A stretch of DNA of 64,000 nt from a phage. Below the pieces are notes generated by a model, which ran no database searches, had not been told where the DNA came from, and worked only from the letters and a program-made list of their open reading frames with translations. Below, piece after piece: positions 1 to 51,637 of this stretch. The stretch lies in the NCBI GenBank assembly GCA_017676145.1, contig GCA_017676145.1_3628.1. One strand, given 5' to 3'. A program made the position numbers and the translations under genes. Numbering within the stretch: the stretch's first letter is position 1; every line of letters starts with the position of its first letter.

Positions 1-341
1 TCGGTATATAATCTCCAGTTCGGAGATTGTGAAGGATCTGCTGGCATCCTAACCGGGTTAGATTTTGATGCTGCTGGGGCGTACCACCACTGAGGGCCTG
101 TATCCCCTTTAAACTCATACAACTGGTTAAAAACTGTTGTGGATGCACCATACGCCCAAGGGATTGGTGGCGTTTTAAAATAAAGGGTGTCAAGCATGGC
201 TTTTCGTACCGTAGGGATGGTGGTCCCATCCTCTACGACAACTTCATCCACAGCGTTACCGTTGACAATCAGGTGCAAACGTTCAGAATCAACAATTACT
301 TGATCTACCGCCTGCTCAAAGCTTGTCATGTCTTGCGCCAT
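1..341 (-). CDS. hypothetical protein, N-terminal part only (gene runs past window start); tail-fibre module
   Basis: ATG at 339-341 (minus) preceded by AAGGAGAAA Shine-Dalgarno; frame stays open to position 1; translation begins MAQDMTSFEQAVDQ. Confidence 0.4.
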   Translation of the reverse strand, partial: MAQDMTSFEQAVDQVIVDSERLHLIVNGNAVDEVVVEDGTTIPTVRKAMLDTLYFKTPPIPWAYGASTTVFNQLYEFKGDTGPQWWYAPAASKSNPVRMPADPSQSPNWRLYT

Positions 342-350
342 GATTTCTCC

Positions 351-617
351 TTAAGCTTTTTGCTCTTCGTTTTTAACGTGGTCAGGGTGCTGGCAACCCC
401 ACCGGAGCGAGATGAATTTGCTAATAAGCTGGGGGCAAGCTACTGAAGGTGCGTATATCCACGCATACCATTCAGGAAGCGTATCATTGTACCCCATATG
501 AATAAACACCCCAGTCATCACTGCCATGCCTATGTTTGACCATAGCTTAGATTGGGACACTTTTGTAGGGTCATCAGATGCTGCAACCAGTCCCCATAAA
601 AACTGAGTTAATTTCAT
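351..617 (-). CDS. small membrane protein (2-3 hydrophobic segments); holin or exclusion candidate
   Basis: 88 aa ORF with hydrophobic stretches IGMAVMTGVFIHM and WYAWIYAPSVA; lies between tail-fibre genes. Confidence 0.35.
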   Translation of the reverse strand: MKLTQFLWGLVAASDDPTKVSQSKLWSNIGMAVMTGVFIHMGYNDTLPEWYAWIYAPSVACPQLISKFISLRWGCQHPDHVKNEEQKA

Positions 618-626
618 TTACCCTCT

Positions 627-1673
627 TTAAGCATAAGATATGGTGATCCATTGACCGTTTACAAATTTTTGAATGGCTCCAGTCCAATAGTCGCCCTGAT
701 ACGGGTGTTTATATGCGTAATTGCCGGAGCACATTACATGCCCAGGGTATACTCTTGATTCTCTGTAGGTGGTTCTGAAACGGTTTGCTATCCTTACATC
801 TTCAACACCTCTACTAGGCATAGGAATAGTAAGGTTACCACTACTGTCTGCGCTACTACCATTTACCCTGCGGACCACGTTTCTTCCACCAACTGTTGCA
901 TATTGACCCCTGGCGGTTTTATCGTTACAATCTACTCTTCCACCTATTTGAGCGCTGCCGCAGGATTGTTGCCCATTAACAGTGGATCTAGGTATCGTTA
1001 CCGCATTAGCATTTGCAGAGGAGCTTTTTGCATCATTGCATTCAAGATTTCCTTGGATAGCCAGTCTTGCACGGTTGGCAGTTATAGCATTGAGCTTCAT
1101 AGCCGAAAACACAGGCTGCCCACCAGAAGGTTGAAATCTCCAACGGAAACCGTCTATTTGGTGAGAGGGATCATCAAGGTCTGTGCCGTCAGCACCACCG
1201 ATGTTGTCCATAATCCAGAAATCCATCATCGTCTTGTCTGGAGTTATGGTGGTGTATATCGCCGCACTATCTGTTGACGCGGATGCAAACTCGATTCTTT
1301 GAAGACCTAAAGTTTGAGTCTGGATCATTGTGTCTCCAGCCTTGTCAACATAAAGGTCATCCATTTCTTCAGGCGAGTATACATTGAGAACTTGACGTGC
1401 AGCAGCTTTGTCTGGAACGTCTGCCAGATTATTAGTGACCCTTAAGAATCTATTATCCCATCCTGGGACAACATCTTCTGTTAAATGCTTTAGCCACGCA
1501 GAGAGCATGTGGAGTTCAAAGTTAACAACTTCACATGCTATCCTTTGTGTCATATCCCAACCTTTCAATCTCTCTTCTTTGTTCGGTTGAGATTTGTTCA
1601 ACTCTCCTGTATTTTCAAGCACAACATCCTGATTGGCCCAAATATCAAGAGGGATAACTGGTTTAGTCATCAC
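627..1673 (-). CDS. tail fibre protein (paralog B)
   Basis: 348 aa; paralog of 2686-3726 with shared N-terminus and C-terminal NGQWIT motif; GDTM motif typical of phage fibres. Confidence 0.6.
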   Translation of the reverse strand: MMTKPVIPLDIWANQDVVLENTGELNKSQPNKEERLKGWDMTQRIACEVVNFELHMLSAWLKHLTEDVVPGWDNRFLRVTNNLADVPDKAAARQVLNVYSPEEMDDLYVDKAGDTMIQTQTLGLQRIEFASASTDSAAIYTTITPDKTMMDFWIMDNIGGADGTDLDDPSHQIDGFRWRFQPSGGQPVFSAMKLNAITANRARLAIQGNLECNDAKSSSANANAVTIPRSTVNGQQSCGSAQIGGRVDCNDKTARGQYATVGGRNVVRRVNGSSADSSGNLTIPMPSRGVEDVRIANRFRTTYRESRVYPGHVMCSGNYAYKHPYQGDYWTGAIQKFVNGQWITISYA

Positions 1674-1760
1674 GTTCTCCTGAGAAAATTCCTTAAGGAC
1701 TATTTTAACACTTTAGAGAACAAAATGCAAGAACGGCATCCTTGCCGTTCTGACCTTTGT

Positions 1761-2075
1761 TTACCTTTTACTATGCTCTACAAGCATGTGTAAAATCTTT
1801 TGCACATCGGCTCTGATACCGGAGACATCTGTCCTGACATCTTGCTTAAGGTCGTTAATATCGGCCTCTAGCTTACTTAACCGGGTCTCAATAATGGAAT
1901 CAAGTCTATCTTTTGTAACCATGCTATTTTTCACTAAAATGAGGTCTTTCTCCAGCTCATCCAACCTCTTGGAAATGCCTTTCCATTTGGTGTGCCACTG
2001 GTTGAAAGCCCATACACAGATCGGGACAACGGTACCCATGCAGATACCGTACAATGCCGCCAAATCCAACTCCAC
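1761..2075 (-). CDS. membrane-anchored coiled-coil protein (holin, antiholin or exclusion candidate)
   Basis: 104 aa; N-terminal hydrophobic helix LAALYGICMGTVVPICVWAF followed by a charged heptad-like region. Confidence 0.35.
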   Translation of the reverse strand: MELDLAALYGICMGTVVPICVWAFNQWHTKWKGISKRLDELEKDLILVKNSMVTKDRLDSIIETRLSKLEADINDLKQDVRTDVSGIRADVQKILHMLVEHSKR

Positions 2076-2086
2076 AACACCTCCTC

Positions 2087-2671
2087 TTAGAGGGTAGGTC
2101 GTTCCGGGAAGAAAATGTCAGGGGCTTTAGATGTATCTATTTCAAGAAGTTTTACCCTGTACATTTTCAAATCTCTGATGTTGCGTTTTTGGTCATCAGT
2201 GAGATCGTATTCAAGGTCAATCATGTCTTGATAGGCACCAATTCTAGCAGTAGCCCAAGCAAGTTCTGTCTCTATGACACCCTCTGCCTGTTGAACAAAG
2301 AATTCATTGTCTGTGACAAATTCATCACCAACTAAACGCAAAGCGTCGTGGTGGAGCATAATGTTTTCTGGTACCTCTTCTTTTTTGGCGATAACCACAC
2401 GAAGACCTGGAGCAGGCCACAAGGCATCAGGTTCTTCTGTAGATGTCTTAAGAATACCCTTCTCGTCAACAAGTAGGAAGATACAGCCTGGATTTTCTTG
2501 TCGTAGTGTTCGTGATTGCACATACCAATCGCCATCATCATTACGTAAAAAATATCCAGTGTATGCCGTATAATCCTCAACCTCCTGAGGAGTCAGCTCC
2601 TTGGTACCTTTGTTGGTGTGGTATTCGCCAGATCCCGGTTGGTAAAGCTTAAACTCTTGAAGTATTTTCAT
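2087..2671 (-). CDS. tail fibre assembly protein (Tfa-like chaperone)
   Basis: 194 aa; C-terminal YRVKLLEIDTSKAPDIFFPERP matches the conserved Tfa C-terminus (YRVLLNRVDTSTAPDIEWP type); directly downstream of a fibre gene. Confidence 0.75.
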   Translation of the reverse strand: MKILQEFKLYQPGSGEYHTNKGTKELTPQEVEDYTAYTGYFLRNDDGDWYVQSRTLRQENPGCIFLLVDEKGILKTSTEEPDALWPAPGLRVVIAKKEEVPENIMLHHDALRLVGDEFVTDNEFFVQQAEGVIETELAWATARIGAYQDMIDLEYDLTDDQKRNIRDLKMYRVKLLEIDTSKAPDIFFPERPTL

Positions 2672-2685
2672 GCTAGTCCTCCGAT

Positions 2686-3726
2686 CTACGCATAATTAAC
2701 AGTGATCCATTGACCATTTACAAGTTTCTGTAAAGGCCCTGCCCAGTAGGTTGAACCACGCATCTCTTTTTTATCACCAAAATGCCAACCTGTGACAACG
2801 TAGCCGTTGCGAACTGGAGATTCAGAAACACCATCAACAAGTCTTGCGCCGATTCTGATATCCTGTACACCTGTCTGCGGGATGGTGATCGTTACATCCC
2901 CGTTGCCGTTAGCCGTCACTCCATTCACAGAGCGCACCACATTTCTGTTACCGACAACACAATGCTGGCTTCTTACAACCATACTGTCACAACTTGCACC
3001 GCCATTGACATATACTGACCCAGCCGTCAACTGACTAGCTACATTGCAGTTGGTGAATGTTGCTGTGCTGCTAATGGTGAGGTTATTACATCGCATGTTA
3101 TCAACAACTTCAACATTGCCCACCACTTTCAACAACGCACGATTAGCCGTGATTGCGTTCAGATACATCAAAGTGAACTCTGGGTTAATGTCAGGCTGAG
3201 TTGGCTGAAATCTCCAACGGAACGCATCTACTGTAGAGGTGCCACCATCATCAAACGCCCCAATATTATCACTTAACCCAAAGTCGAGAGTTGTCTTATC
3301 TGGGCCAATAGTTGTCTCTATCCAAGCCTTATCTGTCTCGGCAGCTTTAAAGTTGATACGTTGCAAACCCAATGGGCCTGTCATTGTATCACCTGTAACT
3401 TTCACATACCTGGCGTCTGCCTCTTCCTTAGTAATAATACCAAGGTTTCTACGGGCAACAGGGATGTTCAAAAGATCACTCAAGTTATTATCACGTACCA
3501 GATAACGGCCTTCTTGAGCGGGGATCTGCTCGTCAGCAATGTATTTTGCCCAAGTCCCGAGCATATTGAAAATATAGTTAAGTTCTTCACAGGATGGCTT
3601 TTGACCAAGATCCCAACCTTTTCTCCACAAATCATCAATCGGGCGTAGCCTGTTCTGTCTGTGGGTGTTAGGCAGAACCTGATCCTCCTCTGCCCAAATC
3701 TCTAATGGAAAACTAGGTTTTGACAT
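2686..3726 (-). CDS. tail fibre protein (paralog A)
   Basis: 346 aa; GDTMTGPL motif; C-terminal KLVNGQWITVNYA; paralog of 627-1673. Confidence 0.6.
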   Translation of the reverse strand: MSKPSFPLEIWAEEDQVLPNTHRQNRLRPIDDLWRKGWDLGQKPSCEELNYIFNMLGTWAKYIADEQIPAQEGRYLVRDNNLSDLLNIPVARRNLGIITKEEADARYVKVTGDTMTGPLGLQRINFKAAETDKAWIETTIGPDKTTLDFGLSDNIGAFDDGGTSTVDAFRWRFQPTQPDINPEFTLMYLNAITANRALLKVVGNVEVVDNMRCNNLTISSTATFTNCNVASQLTAGSVYVNGGASCDSMVVRSQHCVVGNRNVVRSVNGVTANGNGDVTITIPQTGVQDIRIGARLVDGVSESPVRNGYVVTGWHFGDKKEMRGSTYWAGPLQKLVNGQWITVNYA

Positions 3727-3738
3727 TTTATCTCCTGA

Positions 3739-5811
3739 TTATGAGAAGTCTGGCGGGACAACATCTTCTACATACCCTTTCAGAGCAACCTGCCCCATAT
3801 GGAGCACGGTAGAATCCCTAGCGGTAACAGTGATGCTGTCAGACATTACTTGCGGGTATGCCCACACATACTGTTTTACCTCAGGGTATCTATACTCTAT
3901 GGTTGCCATGTTCCCGCAGATACATCTCCATAAAAATTCTTGGTAATTCCTGGTTGGGTCGTAGCCATATACCGGAGCAAGCTCTTTGCTAGGAACGAAC
4001 CCTGCAAGGTATTGTATTTCAGACGGTTGCCAACCTAACTTAACGATAGGTATGTTTACAGACTCTTTTGCCTTTTCAATACCACCCTGCATCACCCAAT
4101 CGTAGCACTCAGTGCAGAAGAAATCAAGAGCACCTGCTTCCTTTTTATATTGGTCAGCAAGGTTCAGCTTTTGCGTAAGCTCGGTTTCCATAATGGTCGG
4201 GAAAAACAGCAAAGCTGTCATCTGAGCCGATGCAGCGTGTGCTTTTATTGCCTTTGAAATAGCTGCAATACGAGCGCCAAGCTTACCACGACAAAATGCT
4301 ACATACTTGTCATAAACACCGCCAGTTTTAGGATCGTCAATAGTCCCAATGTCTAGTGCATATTCACCAGTCTCATCATAAAACGCCTGTTTTGTAGGGT
4401 AGTCATAAATACAAGGCTTACGAGTATCGGTATTGAACCACCACCACGGTTCACCAATCTGCATAATTACTGGCAGGTTGTTTCTCATAGCGGCTGATGC
4501 AAAATTCTTAAATACTGCAGTAAGGAAATTCATACCCTCTTCAATGGTTGGAGACAAGAGGTAACTACAAGGCGTATAGCCTGTTTTAGCATAGTTATCG
4601 TTCCAATCTCTCTGGGTCCATTCCAACGGACAGGCATCGCTATAAAGCTCAAAGCTTACAGACTGCATAACGTCGAAGTCATGTCGCTTGGCATTATACA
4701 TAAAGTCATCGTGCCATTTATAAGCTGCAGCGTTTAGAGCCCCTGTCCTGTTTATAGACCATTGGGTTCCGGACCATGTGTAATCATAATAATGGCTCAT
4801 ACCAACATAATGGTTTATGGTTCCGGTATAGCCCAGACGCTTGATATTGCTCACCACCCTTAAAGGAGATACGTTCCACATATCGTCATATGCTGTGCAG
4901 ATCCCAACGTCGTGCTCTTTCACCTGGATATTGTTAAGTTGCATCATTTTCCAGCCTGTGTCTGGCTGAAGCAGATCTAGACGCAACTCACACTCTACAT
5001 TTTCCGTTCTTGGGTCTGTACTATTACTTACCCAATCTTTAGGCATAAGTGGTATTAGAATCCTTCTCACCTGTCGAGGATCAACACCCATCATGTTGTT
5101 GTTCTGGTCCATCCCGACGCAGTCCTCGAAATCAATATGAATTTCTGCAACATTCTTATCCTCTGAGATGCTGACAGCATATTGAGCTAAAGGAACATAG
5201 ATGATTGTGCCATCAACAAGGTCTACAGTCATAATCATCTTTTCAGGGGTGGAGAAGTTGCTGGCATTGGTTATTGACATTCTGAACCAAAGCTTGGTGT
5301 TTCTCATCTCGTAGTGATCATCAAATCCAATGCCGAAATGGTCATACTTGTCAACTGTTTCCCAAATGCACCCAGCCATGCCTCCATATGTTCTTGACAC
5401 TAAACGGTTAATACAGCAGTTATTATCTGCAACAATACAGGTGCTTTCAGTCTGCTGGGTAGTTGTAACCCAATATCTTGGGTGAAACATTCTCTCCTCA
5501 ACAGTATCCCAAGATATTCTGTCAAGATTCTCATCTGAAACTATTGTGCATTTCGCTCTTTGTGTTCCAATCATAACCCCTTGAGAGTTTGATGAAAACT
5601 CCATAAAGAAGCTTCTTGGCAACCTGTTTGGCAATTTGTCAACAATTTCTACAGGGATCTCAATACTGGTTGCCCCAACCGGGATAGTTACATCGCCCTC
5701 AACATGATCATAATCTCTACCTGGAACTGCAGTATCCTGAACTGTGCGGTAATGAAACCGTGCAGCCATCGTAGAGTAATCACGGTAAGGTTTAAAAACA
5801 GCTGTTGCCAT
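3739..5811 (-). CDS. tail-associated protein with N-terminal Calx-beta-like segment
   Basis: 690 aa; N-terminal DYDHVEGDVTIPVGATSIEIPVEIVDK resembles a Calx-beta repeat; position in fibre module. Confidence 0.4.
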   Translation of the reverse strand: MATAVFKPYRDYSTMAARFHYRTVQDTAVPGRDYDHVEGDVTIPVGATSIEIPVEIVDKLPNRLPRSFFMEFSSNSQGVMIGTQRAKCTIVSDENLDRISWDTVEERMFHPRYWVTTTQQTESTCIVADNNCCINRLVSRTYGGMAGCIWETVDKYDHFGIGFDDHYEMRNTKLWFRMSITNASNFSTPEKMIMTVDLVDGTIIYVPLAQYAVSISEDKNVAEIHIDFEDCVGMDQNNNMMGVDPRQVRRILIPLMPKDWVSNSTDPRTENVECELRLDLLQPDTGWKMMQLNNIQVKEHDVGICTAYDDMWNVSPLRVVSNIKRLGYTGTINHYVGMSHYYDYTWSGTQWSINRTGALNAAAYKWHDDFMYNAKRHDFDVMQSVSFELYSDACPLEWTQRDWNDNYAKTGYTPCSYLLSPTIEEGMNFLTAVFKNFASAAMRNNLPVIMQIGEPWWWFNTDTRKPCIYDYPTKQAFYDETGEYALDIGTIDDPKTGGVYDKYVAFCRGKLGARIAAISKAIKAHAASAQMTALLFFPTIMETELTQKLNLADQYKKEAGALDFFCTECYDWVMQGGIEKAKESVNIPIVKLGWQPSEIQYLAGFVPSKELAPVYGYDPTRNYQEFLWRCICGNMATIEYRYPEVKQYVWAYPQVMSDSITVTARDSTVLHMGQVALKGYVEDVVPPDFS

Positions 5812-8105: not shown

Positions 8106-11100
8106 TTAGTCGTGAGACTCGTTCCAAGGTCCCTGGAAGCTTGAGTTAGAACGACTAACGATCACAGTGGGACAGGAGATTGTGACACCTGTCACGCTAG
8201 ACGTTGACCACGGTGTGTAAATCTCGATAACAATGTCTATAGTTTGTTCACCCAGACCTGTTATCCCTACCGCACACATGCCGTTGTTGTCGTTAAAATA
8301 CTTCTTGCCAGCAAGGATCTGATGACCAGCTATCCATGCATTCAGTTGGGAGCTGGCAAGAGTACCATTCAGTTTAAAGAAGAATGTTACGTTCTTACCC
8401 TGACCTGAAACGTTATCTACGTATCTCCACCTCCAACGGCAAACCCTTTGCTGGGAGTTATATACTGGAGCACAATCCCCGTAAGTCCTGTGTGCAACAA
8501 TTGCACCTTCGAACTGGTTAGCGCGGATAACAGAAGCTTCTACACGACCACGGAAGGTACCTCCGGTTGCATCTATGGTGCCTCTAAAGCTACCATTATT
8601 GGCATAAACATCCCCACGGAAGGTACCACTGGTGGCGTTAACTGCCCCTGTGAAGTTACCTGCACTAGCGTTGATGTTACCTTTCACCCACACATCCATA
8701 AACTGGGCGTGCCCGTTCTTGTTAATATACCAACCGTATTTGTGGTACCCGTTGCCATCGTAGTTGTTAGACGAAATTTCTTGTGCAATCTTGGCAGAAG
8801 AGATCGTCCCGTTCTCTATAAAGGCATCTTTCAAGAACGCTTGGTTGTTCTTAATTGCGAAAGCAAGGGTTGCTGTTCCATTCCCAGGGTTGTATACCGC
8901 AAAGTTGTTTGCACTAACCATGAAGTATGATTGAACTTGGCCTCCAGAACCTTCCATGCCCAATTGGATACCTGCCACATACTTATTCCCTGCGGAGTCT
9001 ACCTGTATTTTTGTGCCCCATTGAGCATTTACTTTGCCCTCTAAGTCGGTCACAGCCTTAGATGTTGTAGCCACTGCAGCTCTTAGCTCTGATACATCCC
9101 CAACATCATCAATGATCTCCTGCTTAGCAACAGCAAGTTCTTGACGAATAGCTGACGCTGTGCCGTTAATAAGATCCACAGTTGCTTTGTTGGTATCGGA
9201 GATTGTAGCGTCCAGTGCTGTTTTTGTGGAGGTCAGCTTACCATCCAAATCCGCAATCGCCTGTTTGTTGGTAGAAATCTCCCCACGTGCAGAAGTTATC
9301 TGCTCAGACAGTGCGGAGGTTTTCTGATTCAACAAATCTGTGGTGGCCTTGTTGGTATTGGCAATCAAGGTATTGAGATCAGTTTTTGCGGTAGTTATCT
9401 TACCATCAAGGGTGGCATAGTTCTTAGATACCGTCGCGTTTGTCTGACTGATCTTTTGATCCAGAGTTTCAGAGGTCCTGTTAAGAAGATCCACTGTCGC
9501 CTTATTGGTGCTCAAGATGCTTGCGTCAAGTTCTGTTCTCTGGGTATTGATCTTGCCATCCAGAGTTTTATCTCCGGCAAGGTATCCGCTCTCCACTCCA
9601 CCTATTTGTTCTACCAACTCCCCTTTGGCTGCAACCAATTTCTCGTCTAAAGCCTCTGTCTTTTTGTTCAGAAGATCAGTGGTTGCTTTATTGGTTGTCT
9701 CAATCAGGGATGCCAGTCTTCCACTTTCAGTGTTCAGATCGTTGGTGAACTTGTTCTGTGCAGCAACAAGTTTCTTATCCAGCGCTGTGATATTGCCATT
9801 GACATCCTCAAACTTCTGAGTTGTCTCTGTAACTACAGCACCTATCCTATCCCCAAGTTGTTGGAATGCCTCATCTACCCTTCCGTCCATGTACTTGTTA
9901 AGTTCTGTGACACGATTTTCAACCTCTTCAATAGAGGAATCTAAAGTGCTCATCAACTCTTTATAAGTTTCTGTCTTTTTAAATTCAGCATCTATCTGAG
10001 GCATCAAATCTTCAATGGAGGTATAGCAGCGTGCAGCACACTCTACAAACTGAGAACTACCAAAAGCATTTGTGGTTCGAATATACCAATAATAAATCTT
10101 ATCGTTCTGCAGACCTTCAGATGTCCAAGTTGAACCAACACCCATGCGGGTGGCTTTTGAAGTAACGGTTGCATCACTTGTGTCCGGCAACCTTGTCATA
10201 CCAGATGTCCAAAAGTCATACTGGGTGCTTACACTTGCCAAGTCCCTACTGTGTGGAATCAGGGTGATAGCAAAGTACCCCTGCTTAACTTCTACAGAAA
10301 CCGGAGCTTCAGGTGCCTGAATGTTAAACTCGCAGTACGCTTCTGGAGATACACCGCCTTTATAAGATGTTGCAACCACGGTTGCTGTGTATGACCCTTT
10401 GGTCAATCCTTCTACGCGGACAAACTGCTCGACTGTTTGTGCTGTCCAAATAATCTCTCCGTTCTTTCTTACCTGCACAATATTTTGAGCGTAAGTCCCA
10501 ACGTTGTCCCAAGCTAAAACACCGTGAGTTACTTCTCCAGCTTGGAGAACGGAATATCTGAAGTTTTGCGGTTGAGCTACACCAGATGGGGATATCGGAA
10601 TATCTACATCGCCAGAATCCGGAAGTTGCCCTGTGGCATCATTCCACTCTTTAGCATCTTGACGAAGTTTTACCTTGACACCGCCCTTTTTGGTGAACTC
10701 CCATTCAAGAACCCTCATTTCTTGGCCCACTATACCAATACTTGGGAGGTCCATTGTAACATAACGGCCAGGCTTAAATTTAAAACCTCGCATATTGCAG
10801 GTGACTTCAATAATCCTGCCAGCTCTAGCACGTCTTAAGAAGATTGCAGAAACACGTTGAGCTTGATAAGGACTGGTAACAAAGCGATAGTCTATATCGA
10901 TTATCTTTCTTTCTCCATCCTTCTCTATCCACTCTGGTACAAACACTGATGGGAAATCTGTTTCAGAATACCCTTTGGTCGGACTAGTGAATCTGCCAGT
11001 TATCGTGTTAGATCTTTTGTCAAATGAGGCTTCCGGATAGATCTTAACCTCACCACAGACACAGTCCTCACTCAATGTCATTGTTGCCGGACCATAGTAT

Positions 11101-11945
11101 GCACCAACCAGCAAACCATACTTACCAGCAACATAACTAAGGTCTGCACCGCAAGCTTTCAGCATTTCTGCCATAATACTTGCTGGGGCCTCATCCATGT
11201 CAAACTCACCGTTAATGGTGTAACGTCGCTCACTGGTGCCGTCAGCGTTTTTTACCGCCTCGTCGCATATGTTGGCAGCCTCCTTGAAGGACTCCCAGTT
11301 GATGGTTTCGTCAGGACATTTAAGGTACGTTCTTAAATAGTCTAGGATCACCAAGGCCGCGTTATTGGTATACACCTCTTTACTGGTGCGAGGATCATAA
11401 CATTTTTTACCAACCTTGATGAGTGTAACGTTTGGCAACCCAAAAGGAAACTTGTTAGGGTCAAACCTGAAGCTAACACGTAGCCAGCTGATCCCTCTAC
11501 CTATCATGTCCGGTGACCACGATGGGCAGTGTGTGCCCATGAAAGGATCAGAGGTTTTTCTGTCGTTATGTAGCTCCCACGATACCAAATCTCCATACGA
11601 AGAAATAGGATTACCGTCGATAAGTATATCTTCTATACCTTCTAGCGGGTGATTGGCAAGAACAATGGCACAATGGAGGGTTCTGTCTCTATCCTGCTCC
11701 AAAAACGCAAGCAATCCAGATGTGCGTGTCTTCCCATACACTACAGAGCAAGGTGCAGCAGAAGATCTGAGAAGCTTTTGTCTATCTTGCTGACTTCTGT
11801 AAGATTTGTTACCCTCGAAAATCTTATCCAGAGTTCTGGTGGTAACAGTGTTCAGACTGTCAGCCAGAGCTGCCTTGGATGCGTTCCAGTCATAGCTTGA
11901 AGATCTTGCAGAAGCAACGATGTTATCAATCATTGCAATTGGCAT
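8106..11945 (-). CDS. lambda J-like host specificity protein (central tail fibre)
   Basis: 1279 aa; fibronectin-III-like segment (IQAPEAPVSVEVKQGYFAITLIPHS) and C-terminal block KYVAGIQLGMEGSGGQVQSYFMVSANNFAV resembling lambda gpJ ([30 protein letters not shown], recalled from memory); central coiled-coil repeats. Confidence 0.65.
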   Translation of the reverse strand: MPIAMIDNIVASARSSSYDWNASKAALADSLNTVTTRTLDKIFEGNKSYRSQQDRQKLLRSSAAPCSVVYGKTRTSGLLAFLEQDRDRTLHCAIVLANHPLEGIEDILIDGNPISSYGDLVSWELHNDRKTSDPFMGTHCPSWSPDMIGRGISWLRVSFRFDPNKFPFGLPNVTLIKVGKKCYDPRTSKEVYTNNAALVILDYLRTYLKCPDETINWESFKEAANICDEAVKNADGTSERRYTINGEFDMDEAPASIMAEMLKACGADLSYVAGKYGLLVGAYYGPATMTLSEDCVCGEVKIYPEASFDKRSNTITGRFTSPTKGYSETDFPSVFVPEWIEKDGERKIIDIDYRFVTSPYQAQRVSAIFLRRARAGRIIEVTCNMRGFKFKPGRYVTMDLPSIGIVGQEMRVLEWEFTKKGGVKVKLRQDAKEWNDATGQLPDSGDVDIPISPSGVAQPQNFRYSVLQAGEVTHGVLAWDNVGTYAQNIVQVRKNGEIIWTAQTVEQFVRVEGLTKGSYTATVVATSYKGGVSPEAYCEFNIQAPEAPVSVEVKQGYFAITLIPHSRDLASVSTQYDFWTSGMTRLPDTSDATVTSKATRMGVGSTWTSEGLQNDKIYYWYIRTTNAFGSSQFVECAARCYTSIEDLMPQIDAEFKKTETYKELMSTLDSSIEEVENRVTELNKYMDGRVDEAFQQLGDRIGAVVTETTQKFEDVNGNITALDKKLVAAQNKFTNDLNTESGRLASLIETTNKATTDLLNKKTEALDEKLVAAKGELVEQIGGVESGYLAGDKTLDGKINTQRTELDASILSTNKATVDLLNRTSETLDQKISQTNATVSKNYATLDGKITTAKTDLNTLIANTNKATTDLLNQKTSALSEQITSARGEISTNKQAIADLDGKLTSTKTALDATISDTNKATVDLINGTASAIRQELAVAKQEIIDDVGDVSELRAAVATTSKAVTDLEGKVNAQWGTKIQVDSAGNKYVAGIQLGMEGSGGQVQSYFMVSANNFAVYNPGNGTATLAFAIKNNQAFLKDAFIENGTISSAKIAQEISSNNYDGNGYHKYGWYINKNGHAQFMDVWVKGNINASAGNFTGAVNATSGTFRGDVYANNGSFRGTIDATGGTFRGRVEASVIRANQFEGAIVAHRTYGDCAPVYNSQQRVCRWRWRYVDNVSGQGKNVTFFFKLNGTLASSQLNAWIAGHQILAGKKYFNDNNGMCAVGITGLGEQTIDIVIEIYTPWSTSSVTGVTISCPTVIVSRSNSSFQGPWNESHD
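9100..9800 (-). repeat. in-frame tandem repeats (about 100 nt units) inside the J-like gene
   Basis: protein shows repeated TNKATTDLLN / TNKATVDLLN / TNKATVDLIN units; matching DNA units such as tggccttgttggtattggcaatcaagg and ttgctttgttggtatcggagattgtag. Confidence 0.4.
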
Positions 11946-39855: not shown

Positions 39856-40281
39856 ACCCTCATCGAAGCAAACCATGGTGTACTCAAGCCCTTGATGGTT
39901 AAGCTTATCTTGGACATACTCCATGTGGCAGTATTTTACAACGGCCCCTTTTTTGCTCCTGTCCCACTTGCCAGTGCTCGGATCAAACCGTGGAAAAATA
40001 AACTTATGATCCTTCTCTCTGAACTTTGGTTTAATGTTTTCAGGCAGATCACTGTAAATAGCTACTGCTTTAGGCCATAGACCTCCTTCACCCTCCAGCT
40101 GCGGGGTTGTTCTTCGGAACATAACCACAGAGCTGTGTGGGTCATCAATAATTTTAAGTGGCATTAGCTGCAAGAGGAACGACTTGCCAGAACCGGCTGC
40201 ACCTCCGATCACCAAAATATCTGCATCGTTCTCAAGGATCATCTTCTGCTTTTCAGAACACGGTCCGTAAATCTTAGACAT
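39856..40281 (-). CDS. terL: terminase large subunit, exon 1 (ATPase N-terminus)
   Basis: Walker A GGAAGSGKS and Walker B MVCFDE in translation; ORF ends at a stop that lies inside the intron. Confidence 0.75.
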
Positions 40282-40568
40282 TAACCTCTCTCCTTTGGAA
40301 ACAGTGTTCTTATATAGTCTTGCAAAATGATCAATTTAGCTCTATCATTACTACAAGACAGGTTATTATCCCTCATAATGCCAGAATTCACCGCATCTGG
40401 CGCACCTTTCTTCAAAGGGATAGCTTTAGCAGGTGGTTTCATAGCACCCTCGGGAGGTTTAACAATCAACCTTCCTACATCCGGAGGGTCAATCTTATAT
40501 TCTTTTTCGACACTTGTCGCACATCCGCACAGCAGTAAGCAAGCAACTAACAATACGGTGGCTCTCAT
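40281..40568 (-). CDS. o-spanin (Rz1-like outer-membrane lipoprotein)
   Basis: 95 aa; signal peptide with LLCGC lipobox; proline-rich body; overlaps i-spanin gene. Confidence 0.65.
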   Translation of the reverse strand: MRATVLLVACLLLCGCATSVEKEYKIDPPDVGRLIVKPPEGAMKPPAKAIPLKKGAPDAVNSGIMRDNNLSCSNDRAKLIILQDYIRTLFPKERG

Positions 40569-40963
40569 CTACCCTCCTGATTAATGCTCTCGTTATAGAT
40601 ATCTATAAGCTGGTCAGGTAGTGTTGACTTCTTACCTTCAGGTGATTGGAGGTAGATAATCTGCTTTTCTTTACCTGCCTTCTCAGCCATATTTAATTTA
40701 TCCTGTAAGTCAGAAAGAGATTTTTCAAGGTTTTTAACCTCCTCTGCGTGGCCCATTTTAATTTTGTCGGCCTGCTTTTGTTGTTGGTCAAGGATCCGTT
40801 CCCACTTTAACTCTGTTGCTGACACACCTTCCTGATAAGCATCATTGAGCTTAGAGTTAAACCAATACACGGCCCCAAGATAAGTCATGCCTATAGCCGC
40901 TGCAAAAACTAAACCTTTTATGATCCCTCTGTATTTACTCATCAATGTTAAAACTGAAATCAT
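40565..40963 (-). CDS. i-spanin (Rz-like)
   Basis: 132 aa; N-terminal transmembrane helix then coiled-coil periplasmic domain; 4 nt overlap with o-spanin. Confidence 0.65.
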   Translation of the reverse strand: MISVLTLMSKYRGIIKGLVFAAAIGMTYLGAVYWFNSKLNDAYQEGVSATELKWERILDQQQKQADKIKMGHAEEVKNLEKSLSDLQDKLNMAEKAGKEKQIIYLQSPEGKKSTLPDQLIDIYNESINQEGR

Positions 40964-51166: not shown

Positions 51167-51637
51167 ATGAAACTTGATAAAAATGTTCAACGAAAAGCTT
51201 TCTTGGATATGATCGCATATTCAGAAGGTACAGATAATGGTAGACAACCTACCAAGGATCGGGGCTACGATGTCATAGTCGGGGGCAAGCTGTTTAGCGA
51301 TTACAGTAAGCATCCAGGTGTTTACGTTAAACTAAATGCTAAACTTACCTCCTCTGCTGCTGGGCGTTACCAGATTCTGGAGAAGTTTGCTAAACACTAT
51401 ATGAAACAGTTAGGATTACCAGATTTTGGCCCTACCAGTCAGGACAAGATTGCGTTGCAACTGATCCGTGAGTGTAAGGCGCTCGATGATATTGATGAAG
51501 GTCGTATTCACCAGGCCATCCATCTTTGCAGATCCCGATGGGCAAGCCTTCCAGGTGCAGGGTACGGTCAGCACGAACAGAAGATCGAAAAGTTGATCGA
51601 GGTGTTTAAAAAGTCAGGCGGCGTTGTCCTGGATTAA
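51167..51637 (+). CDS. endolysin, lambda R-like lytic transglycosylase
   Basis: RKAFLDMIAYSEGTDNGRQ, GYDVIVGG, AAGRYQIL, WASLPGAGYGQ blocks closely parallel lambda R (recalled from memory). Confidence 0.85.
   Translation: MKLDKNVQRKAFLDMIAYSEGTDNGRQPTKDRGYDVIVGGKLFSDYSKHPGVYVKLNAKLTSSAAGRYQILEKFAKHYMKQLGLPDFGPTSQDKIALQLIRECKALDDIDEGRIHQAIHLCRSRWASLPGAGYGQHEQKIEKLIEVFKKSGGVVLD

Follow-up and report, generated by a model that had tools for sequence, protein, structure and literature searches.

The phage contig GCA_017676145.1_3628.1 (64,000 nucleotides, GenBank assembly GCA_017676145.1), referred to here in its full length as the window, carries two paralogous short tail fiber (STF) genes between positions 351 and 3726, together with a chaperone gene and two genes for small hydrophobic proteins. 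The question raised by this locus is whether the fibers form two cassettes with distinct partners, as the initial annotation proposed, or belong to one module, and what the small hydrophobic proteins do. Our comparisons favored an STF module of the type found in phage rV5, in which two paralogous fibers and one tail fiber assembly chaperone (Tfa) are accompanied by the remnant of a conserved set of membrane genes, and in which the 88-amino-acid (aa) hydrophobic protein is likely to be a lysis protein. We give this model a probability of about 0.8.

A short tail fiber module of the rV5 type

For positions 1 to 4000 of the window, matches of 90-99% identity were found in 117 phage records, in 112 cases over most of the length. 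The best matches were Escherichia phages EPFV3-03/2025 (99.1%) and FV3 (98.5%), both members of the genus Vequintavirus; judged from its sequence, the source phage is a Vequintavirus, an rV5/FV3-like myophage. Every gene in the first 12 kb was on the minus strand, and the annotations of BASEL phage Bas59 and RefSeq FV3, as well as the rV5 gene table (Table S3), agreed gene for gene with the window. The features of the module and its flanks were as follows.

3-341, minus strand: lateral tail fiber (rV5 gp28 ortholog), first 113 of 581 codons, translation beginning with M and remainder beyond the window (Bas59, FV3, rV5 Table S3)
351-617, minus strand: 88-aa hydrophobic protein, m88 (rV5 gp29 ortholog; PHROG 1322, full length, E = 2.7e-32)
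627-1670, minus strand: short tail fiber paralog 2, STF2, 347 aa (rV5 gp30 ortholog; PHROG 4465, 1.1e-162)
1701-1710, minus strand: core of the predicted rV5 late promoter P030, TGTTAAAATA (sequence; rV5 Table S4)
1730-1751, minus strand: terminator-like hairpin between the 104-aa gene and the STF2 gene, found in a scan (9-bp stem, 4-nucleotide loop, T-rich tail)
1761-2075, minus strand: 104-aa membrane-anchored helical protein, mCC (rV5 gp31 ortholog, "membrane protein, 1 TMD [transmembrane domain]" in the rV5 table; PHROG 5345)
2087-2671, minus strand: Tfa, 194 aa (rV5 gp32 ortholog; Pfam Caudo_TAP, PHROG 136)
2686-3726, minus strand: short tail fiber paralog 1, STF1, 346 aa (rV5 gp33 ortholog; PHROG 4465, 2.3e-171)
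3739-5811, minus strand: rV5 gp34 ortholog, 690 aa (rV5 gene table)

The genes lay at the positions given by the initial annotation, with the exception of the STF2 start: 1670 corresponds to the ATG annotated in rV5 and FV3, and 1673 to an in-frame upstream GTG. The order described there was also found, with STF1 followed by Tfa and the membrane-anchored helical protein, and STF2 followed by the 88-aa hydrophobic protein and the lateral fiber gene that leaves the window. In BASEL, the 581-aa product of that last gene is labeled "lateral tail fiber protein with glycosidase domain." For every gene of the module, the ratio of nonsynonymous to synonymous substitution rates (dN/dS) was 0.00-0.06, measured against relatives with dS values of up to 0.3.

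The paralogy of rV5 gp30 and gp33 (42.3% identity) was published together with a proposal that they recognize two lipopolysaccharide (LPS) chemotypes (Kropinski et al. 2013, PMC3606486). In the Vequintavirinae sensu stricto, Maffei et al. (2021, PMC8594841) recognized a pair of paralogous short tail fibers along with a chaperone, with homology to Mu GpS/GpU, and they assigned one such short fiber to phi92-like phages and Phapecoctavirus. The window shared with rV5 (PMC3606486) and the BASEL Vequintavirus phages (PMC8594841) the same genes, order, sizes, predicted P030 promoter, and paralogy of about 42%, with DNA that was 95-99% identical; there was no difference of substance, and the window represents another isolate. 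Thus, the duplicated fiber is real but ordinary for the genus and already known, and as a textbook feature of a much-used therapeutic and typing phage group, it carries little weight as a discovery. The rV5 publication leaves gp29 as hypothetical and gp31 as a membrane protein (PMC3606486). The only new lead in the region is that the small membrane genes may be lysis genes, possibly including a holin, instead of fiber accessories.

The two fibers were true paralogs, as the initial annotation had stated. They aligned over their full length with 43% identity (E = 5e-95), and their C-terminal ends were NGQWITVNYA and NGQWITISYA. Its statement that they diverge centrally was incorrect, because residues 106-200 were the best-conserved part, with 43-67% identity across segments of 30 residues; conservation was lowest at approximately residues 46-75, 205-245 (with indels), and 291-330. 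The N-terminal docking domains were about 38% identical to each other. Both fibers covered the whole 342-position PHROG 4465 profile, and searches of Pfam and NCBIfam with the two fibers yielded no matches. Residues 1-108 of STF1 and residues 2-84 of STF2 matched the phiTE short tail fiber (PDB 9cuy; 1.8e-19 and 2.3e-8, respectively), and residues 286-343 of STF1 matched Mu fiber protein S (PDB 5yvq; 4e-6). For STF2, there was no direct PDB match to the Mu S domain, and the link runs via its paralogy to STF1 and the common ...VNGQWIT..YA end. A disabled copy, which had been named beforehand as evidence against two working fibers, was not what we found: both copies were intact and under purifying selection (dN/dS of 0.024 for STF1 and 0.058 for STF2).

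In the phiTE structure, STF residues 3-92 are modeled on wedge 1, and the first ~90 residues grip the single-copy wedge subunit. The phi92 counterpart gp147 is "fiber III," a trimer that points downward and is proposed to be an irreversible binder passing a signal to the wedge. By homology with phiTE gp236 and phi92 gp147, each STF in the window would form a downward-pointing trimer with its N-terminal ~100 residues docked on the baseplate wedge, and the trimers would bind the LPS core, resulting in irreversible adsorption and the triggering of contraction. In the main text of the rV5 paper, gp30, gp32, and gp33 are among the proteins detected by proteomics (PMC3606486). The three are absent from 18 of the 19 loci of the rV5 mass spectrometry table, and the 19th, by coverage order, should be the portal protein gp64; within these limits of the table, it does not document the presence of both paralogs in virions.

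The chaperone gene starts 15 nucleotides past the STF1 stop. Its product matched Pfam Caudo_TAP (PF02413) with 45.5 bits against a gathering cutoff of 22.1 (E = 1.1e-11) and PHROG 136 with 2.1e-36, which bore out its earlier identification as Tfa and, at the level of sequence, makes it a chaperone of the Mu gpU/lambda Tfa type. The gene had a dN/dS of 0.03, a PDB search with the protein found no relative, and no second Caudo_TAP chaperone was found in the 351-3726 module. Because the C-terminal ends of the two fibers are conserved, we infer that the single Tfa serves both STF1 and STF2. Chaperone sharing is harder to reconcile with fiber region 291-330, which was only ~30% identical between the paralogs.

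Relatives with a single fiber provided the main evidence on how the module is built. In these phages, the gene order was wedge genes, one STF, Tfa, an mCC-type protein, a polytopic membrane protein, an m88-type protein, and a large lateral fiber. This order held in Certrevirus phiTE, a Seunavirus, the unclassified Vequintavirinae A73 and SSBI34, Henunavirus Hena1, and an Aeromonas Plateaulakevirus. The mCC-type proteins (93-112 aa) begin with a transmembrane helix and continue as helical sequence; the polytopic proteins were ~150 aa and the m88-type proteins 86-90 aa. A tblastn search with the polytopic protein returned 107 records. The 104-aa protein had matched equally many records outside the rV5-like group, and of the 30 polytopic matches listed, not one was rV5-like. 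The polytopic protein had no match in the window, and in Vequintavirus its slot is occupied by STF2. Thus, the proposal of two cassettes with distinct partners was not supported, since the 104-aa and 88-aa genes flank the polytopic gene in single-fiber relatives. Because they are present there in the same order, they are not partners of one paralog, and gene order and sequence together identify the locus as one module, with the small genes as the remainder of a conserved three-gene membrane set. Separately, in Aeromonas phage 4L372D, the interval between genes 4L372D_101 and _100 (approximately 4480-4940) contains an unannotated open reading frame (ORF) that would encode a polytopic membrane protein of ~150 aa; the ORF fills the polytopic-gene slot of the other relatives, and the annotated start of gene _101 seems wrong, being too late.

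STF1 outscored STF2 against every outgroup fiber. In the case of the single Seunavirus fiber, the scores were 276 and 226 bits; against STF2 itself, STF1 scored 274 bits, so that the Seunavirus fiber is as close to STF1 as its paralog is. Because STF1 scored higher against all outgroup fibers, it is the ancestral ortholog, corresponding in both position and sequence to the single fiber of the relatives, and STF2 is an old, faster-evolving duplicate. The duplicate takes the place that the polytopic gene has in single-fiber relatives, and a terminator and a late promoter of its own are predicted for it. Specifically, a P030-like sequence spanned positions 1690-1727; it was nearly identical to the rV5 Table S4 entry apart from one extra T, its core was conserved in Bas59 and FV3, and an AGGAG ribosome-binding site followed the core at approximately 1677-1681. 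In rV5, P030 in front of gene 30 is a predicted late promoter, and the hairpin at 1730-1751 is not in the rV5 terminator table of Kropinski (PMC3606486). In Bas59, a C-G pair in the stem of this hairpin is replaced by A-T, a compensatory change.

The 88-aa and 104-aa proteins and a possible role in lysis

Both small proteins were hydrophobic, as the initial annotation had claimed. The 104-aa protein contains a single segment of strong hydrophobicity, near its N terminus (residues 5-23; Kyte-Doolittle value of 1.91), and in the 88-aa protein two segments are weakly hydrophobic, with Kyte-Doolittle values of about 1.0. The first putative hydrophobic helix of the 88-aa protein is rich in Gly, Ala, Ser, and Thr, its homologs have variable, charged C-terminal tails, and the gene showed a dN of 0 at a dS of 0.14. 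Judged by gene order, the membrane trio corresponds to CB7_33-35 in Certrevirus phage CB7. None of these three is among the 26 proteins of the CB7 virion proteome, which does include the flanking fibers CB7_31 and CB7_36 (PMC7344957); because of this absence, the small membrane proteins are unlikely to be virion parts.

The strongest indication of a function came from the distribution of PHROG 1322. The family reached Phapecoctavirus, Aeromonas and Stenotrophomonas myophages, and the Mu-like Pseudomonas phage Bise and Ralstonia phage RS138. In Bise, an 80-aa ORF belonging to the family (1.2e-19) overlaps the stop codon of a Peptidase_M15_4 endolysin gene, and an Rz-like gene is next. In RS138, the family member, ORF27 (8.6e-23), lies between a PHROG 873 "endolysin" (3.8e-63) and a PHROG 1403 "Rz-like spanin" (4.9e-51). 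The order of endolysin, PHROG 1322, and Rz was found in eight further loci, in which protein identity had fallen to 34-66%; single-protein locus scans gave close relatives of Bise and RS138 only. The reciprocal tblastn search returned the Vequintavirinae family. The Bise and RS138 endolysins have no N-terminal hydrophobic segment, so each should need a holin, and the PHROG 1322 gene is in the usual place for one.

The other lysis genes of the source phage are elsewhere in the window.

40281-40568, minus strand: o-spanin, 95 aa, lipobox LLCGC, adjoining the terminase gene (ORFs, sequence)
40565-40963, minus strand: i-spanin, 132 aa, adjoining the terminase gene (ORFs, sequence)
51167-51637, plus strand: lambda-R-type endolysin, 156 aa (rV5 gp89 ortholog; PDB 1am7)

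The pair at 40281-40963 corresponds to rV5 gp66/gp67, and an o-/i-spanin pair has been described for rV5, PVP-SE1, and CB7 (PMC7344957); on sequence grounds, we regard these genes as the true spanins of the source phage. Endolysin residues 4-154 matched residues 3-153 of lambda lysozyme 1am7 (2.2e-56), which confirmed the assignment via PDB; Pfam and NCBIfam searches with this protein gave no match. The endolysin has no N-terminal transmembrane or signal-anchor-release (SAR) segment and for this reason should depend on a holin. No holin for the rV5-like group was identified in the literature found, and none was listed in two recent Vequintavirus genome reports. The published guesses are gp129 for rV5, made from topology alone (Kropinski 2013, PMC3606486), and another small ORF for CB7 (PMC7344957). 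The GC skew of the window changes sign near 46 kb, at the point where minus-strand late genes give way to genes on the plus strand.

In the proposed mechanism, the 88-aa protein would probably supply the holin needed by the soluble lambda-R-type endolysin. Several observations weigh against this assignment. The 88-aa protein had no match in Pfam or NCBIfam and no likeness to any described holin family. Its hydrophobic segments, at a Kyte-Doolittle value of about 1.0, are under the usual transmembrane threshold, and because of this weak hydrophobicity, TMHMM and Phobius did not flag the rV5 protein in 2013 (PMC3606486). The AlphaFold2 model had a low confidence (predicted local distance difference test [pLDDT] score of 58) and was too uncertain for a fold search. 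The gene lies 50 kb from the endolysin gene, the window has no shared lysis cassette, and the protein is unusually well conserved for a holin. Furthermore, the Mu-like examples come from two lineages only and amount to guilt by association, so an antiholin or other accessory would be equally possible. On balance, we consider the chances that the 88-aa protein is a holin to be about even, and a lysis function of some kind is the more probable assignment. Two other leads for this family were rejected: a "DUF2644" label on one metagenomic homolog was not reproduced with Pfam, and no paper was found that mentions DUF2644; Mu gp24, a suspected relative, proved to be an unrelated zinc-finger protein. 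A weak tblastn match to the Bise member (3e-5) was observed at 4501-4713 of a locus of Stenotrophomonas phage Bhz51 (Menderavirus), in an unannotated gap of the replication module that adjoins the DNA polymerase gene, on the strand opposite to its neighbors.

The 104-aa protein carries acidic residues before and basic residues after its transmembrane helix. The positive-inside rule gives an N-out/C-in topology, and the coiled-coil-like domain of ~75 aa is therefore predicted to be mostly cytoplasmic. This domain is charge balanced (15 K+R and 14 D+E), and the AlphaFold2 model shows two long helices (residues 5-50 and 55-103) with a pLDDT score of 88. The gene had a dN/dS of 0.017. The GTG start at 2075, which gives 104 aa as in rV5 and BASEL, was backed by an M-x-L/I-D-L/I N terminus that is conserved in other genera; RefSeq FV3 uses an internal ATG, resulting in a 92-aa product (10761-11039). 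An exhaustive HMMER search with the protein yielded 12 clusters only, Pfam scans of these clusters were uninformative, and a Foldseek search of the model against viral structures returned nothing below E = 0.49.

Three assignments for the 104-aa protein were examined and set aside. An i-spanin of the Rz type would have a different topology from that predicted, there is no lipobox ORF overlapping or downstream of the gene, and the true spanins are at 40281-40963. The lipoprotein label used by PHROG 15210 and PGAP was discarded in view of a Phapecoctavirus homolog that lacks any cysteine: JR319_gp045 of phage Ro121c4YLVW (111 aa, 10989-11324), called "lipoprotein" in both RefSeq and PHROG 15210. 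Finally, homology with DUF2730, the family of the Mu releasin gp25, was not established, since there was no Pfam PF10805 match, the BLASTP E value was 0.098, and the hhalign probability was 20.9%. The alignment of the 104-aa protein with Mu gp25 was full length and in register but weak.

There was an indirect route to the releasin position. The Phapecoctavirus homolog of the 104-aa protein (BLASTP, 4e-7) matched PHROG 462 (5.7e-7), the family of the Bise protein in the position held by gp25 in Mu; Mu gp25 itself is in PHROG 736 and the 104-aa protein in PHROG 5345. With its gp25-like architecture, the 104-aa protein may regulate lysis. This assignment is possible but doubtful, because the direct link to the releasin is weak (BLASTP, 0.098; hhalign, 21%) and the bridge from Phapecoctavirus to PHROG 462 runs through coiled-coil sequence, which inflates scores. 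Two small helical proteins with one transmembrane segment, RS138 ORF30 (4523-4744) and the Bise 92-aa protein (4701-4979), close Mu-like lysis cassettes in the position of gp25. The transmembrane segment is C-terminal in the former and N-terminal in the latter, and neither had a significant Pfam match.

A wider proposal, in which PHROG 1322 is an undescribed holin family common to virulent Vequintavirinae-type myophages and Mu-like Pseudomonas and Ralstonia phages, with the neighboring rV5 gp31-type protein, which distantly resembles the protein at the gp25 position of these Mu-like phages, as its regulator, is one that we advance tentatively and with less than even confidence. If it is true, the holin system of rV5-like phages has sat unrecognized inside the tail fiber module. 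The 88-aa gene is a specific holin candidate that would be cheap to test, and the outcome would also provide a function for PHROG 1322, a family with several hundred phage genes.

Receptor specificity, competing roles, and neighboring genes

The initial annotation took the two fibers to be independent cassettes with their own accessory proteins and two receptor specificities, and it suggested that the small membrane proteins mask the receptor, exclude superinfecting phages, or time lysis. For the first part of this reading, it can be said that the paralogs differ most, and carry indels, in the distal third and that both are under purifying selection in at least 112 genomes, observations with which dual receptor specificity is compatible at the sequence level. 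In addition, exclusion genes do occur beside receptor-binding genes, as with llp in T5 and cor in phi80 and T1. Dual specificity is the hypothesis already printed for rV5 gp30/gp33, for which recognition of two LPS chemotypes was proposed (PMC3606486). The BASEL data point the other way: the fibers show no allelic variation, one LPS-core glucose is required by all tested members, and infection was wholly lost on waaG and waaC mutants for all tested Vequintavirinae (PMC8594841). Such a sugar would be a hard target for a small inner-membrane protein to mask. Neither small protein has an N-terminal lipobox or an Llp/Cor-type signal peptide, the Phapecoctavirus homolog labeled "lipoprotein" lacks the cysteine, and the 104-aa protein is predicted to be mostly cytoplasmic, so receptor masking was unsupported. 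Exclusion functions are usually expressed early, but the small genes belong to a late operon, and they are found in the same order in one-fiber relatives. We therefore consider independent cassettes with masking or exclusion proteins to be improbable. The suggestion of lysis timing fared better, with support for the 88-aa protein from its homologs in Mu-like lysis cassettes. A lysis or holin role for this protein is likelier than receptor masking because the homologs lie between endolysin and Rz genes and because the endolysin of the window is soluble.

The small proteins could instead be morphogenetic, either as a membrane-tethered platform or T4 gp57A-type chaperone that folds or trimerizes the short fibers or as factors that attach them to baseplates at the inner membrane. 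The cytoplasmic helical domain of the 104-aa protein, at ~75 aa, is the size of T4 gp57A, and the small genes are late and cotranscribed with the fiber genes. The absence of the orthologs from CB7 virions is also what would be expected of chaperones (PMC7344957). Set against these points, neither sequence nor fold searches linked the small proteins to a chaperone, members of the 88-aa family are also present inside Mu-like lysis cassettes far from fiber genes, and the Phapecoctavirus 88-aa homolog is not beside the STF gene. Mu-type S fibers are not known to need any chaperone but gpU (PMC8594841). A morphogenetic role for the small proteins in general is thus unlikely. For the 104-aa protein, a role tied to the STF-Tfa pair stays a fair rival to lysis regulation because a gene of this type came directly after STF and Tfa in every relative examined, Phapecoctavirus included.

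The paralogs might also be redundant or structurally subfunctionalized, occupying different docking positions or being mixed on the six wedge sites, and bind the same LPS-core sugar. The complete loss of infection on waaG and waaC mutants and the lack of allelic variation (PMC8594841) fit this explanation, as do the phi92-like and Phapecoctavirus relatives, which manage with one STF, and the docking domains, which at ~38% identity could fit different sites. A redundant copy, however, would not be expected to keep a dN/dS of ~0.06 across the genus, and it is in the distal part, which presumably binds the receptor, that divergence and indels are mostly found. This explanation seems to us possible, with the odds somewhat against it. 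For the engineering of host range in rV5-like phages, it matters whether STF1 and STF2 recognize distinct types of LPS core and how the docking sites on the wedge are shared between them.

Some neighboring genes and records also deserve mention. The gp34 ortholog contains a Calx-beta domain and the N-terminal and TIM-barrel domains of the N4 gp65-type "non-contractile tail sheath" (1.9e-79); a 2026 preprint linked a gp34-like protein in Vequintavirus to N4 glycan receptor binding. The gp37 ortholog (8106-11945, 1279 aa) has several copies of a motif near "TNKATTDLLN..." spaced along a long helical region, and it is labeled central tail fiber J in FV3 and lateral tail fiber with fibronectin domain in Bas59. 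Between 16 and 21 GenBank "Campylobacter phage" records (within MG065644-MG065690), with Campylobacter jejuni given as the host, were 95-100% identical to E. coli rV5-like phages across the locus; either the host assignments are apparently mistaken or the stocks had been contaminated.

Comparison with known fiber, exclusion, and lysis systems

One close parallel for the fibers and their chaperone is S (gp49) and U (gp50) of phage Mu. The C-terminal domain of STF1 matched Mu S, the chaperone is a Caudo_TAP protein like gpU, and an LPS-core glucose is the receptor in both cases. Mu inverts its G segment to switch between S/U and S'/U', whereas the source phage has two fixed paralogs and one chaperone gene was found. 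The N-terminal docking domain of the window STFs is also of the phiTE/phi92 type and not of the Mu type. In phiTE gp236 (PDB 9cuy) and phi92 gp147, the N-terminal ~100 residues are homologous to those of the window fibers, the genes occupy the same place after the wedge genes and before Tfa, and the proteins are downward trimers on the wedge. These phages have a single copy, and the phiTE fiber is longer (554 aa, with a coiled coil and immunoglobulin domains), with flagella as its presumed target.

T4 gp12 is a functional analogue, with LPS-core binding, irreversible adsorption, and baseplate triggering. It differs in needing gp57A instead of Tfa and in being folded under the baseplate until the long fibers bind. 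HHpred similarity to gp12 was reported by Kropinski (PMC3606486), and T4 gp12 gave no match to the window fibers in our searches. As for exclusion systems, lipoproteins of the T5 Llp or Cor type carry a signal peptide and a lipobox cysteine and reach the receptor from the periplasm or in the outer membrane, and neither small protein of the window has an N-terminal lipobox.

For lysis, the 88-aa protein resembles class II holins such as S21 in being small and in having two putative hydrophobic helices, of which the first is SAR-type-like, and a C-terminal tail that is variable and charged in its homologs. It differs from them in its weak hydrophobicity and lack of sequence similarity. The T4 holin gene t is a late gene located just after tail fiber genes 37-38. 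The 88-aa gene is likewise late and inside a fiber module, and its homologs fill the holin slot of Mu-like lysis cassettes. The 104-aa protein and the Mu gp25 releasin (DUF2730; Chamblee et al. 2022, PMC9239132) are both ~100 aa, with an N-terminal transmembrane helix, a predicted N-out/C-in topology, and a ~75-aa cytoplasmic helical domain, which is slightly acidic in gp25 and charge balanced in the 104-aa protein. The Mu releasin pairs with a SAR endolysin, whereas the endolysin of the window is soluble and lambda-R-like, which would leave a releasin activity of the 104-aa protein without a substrate.

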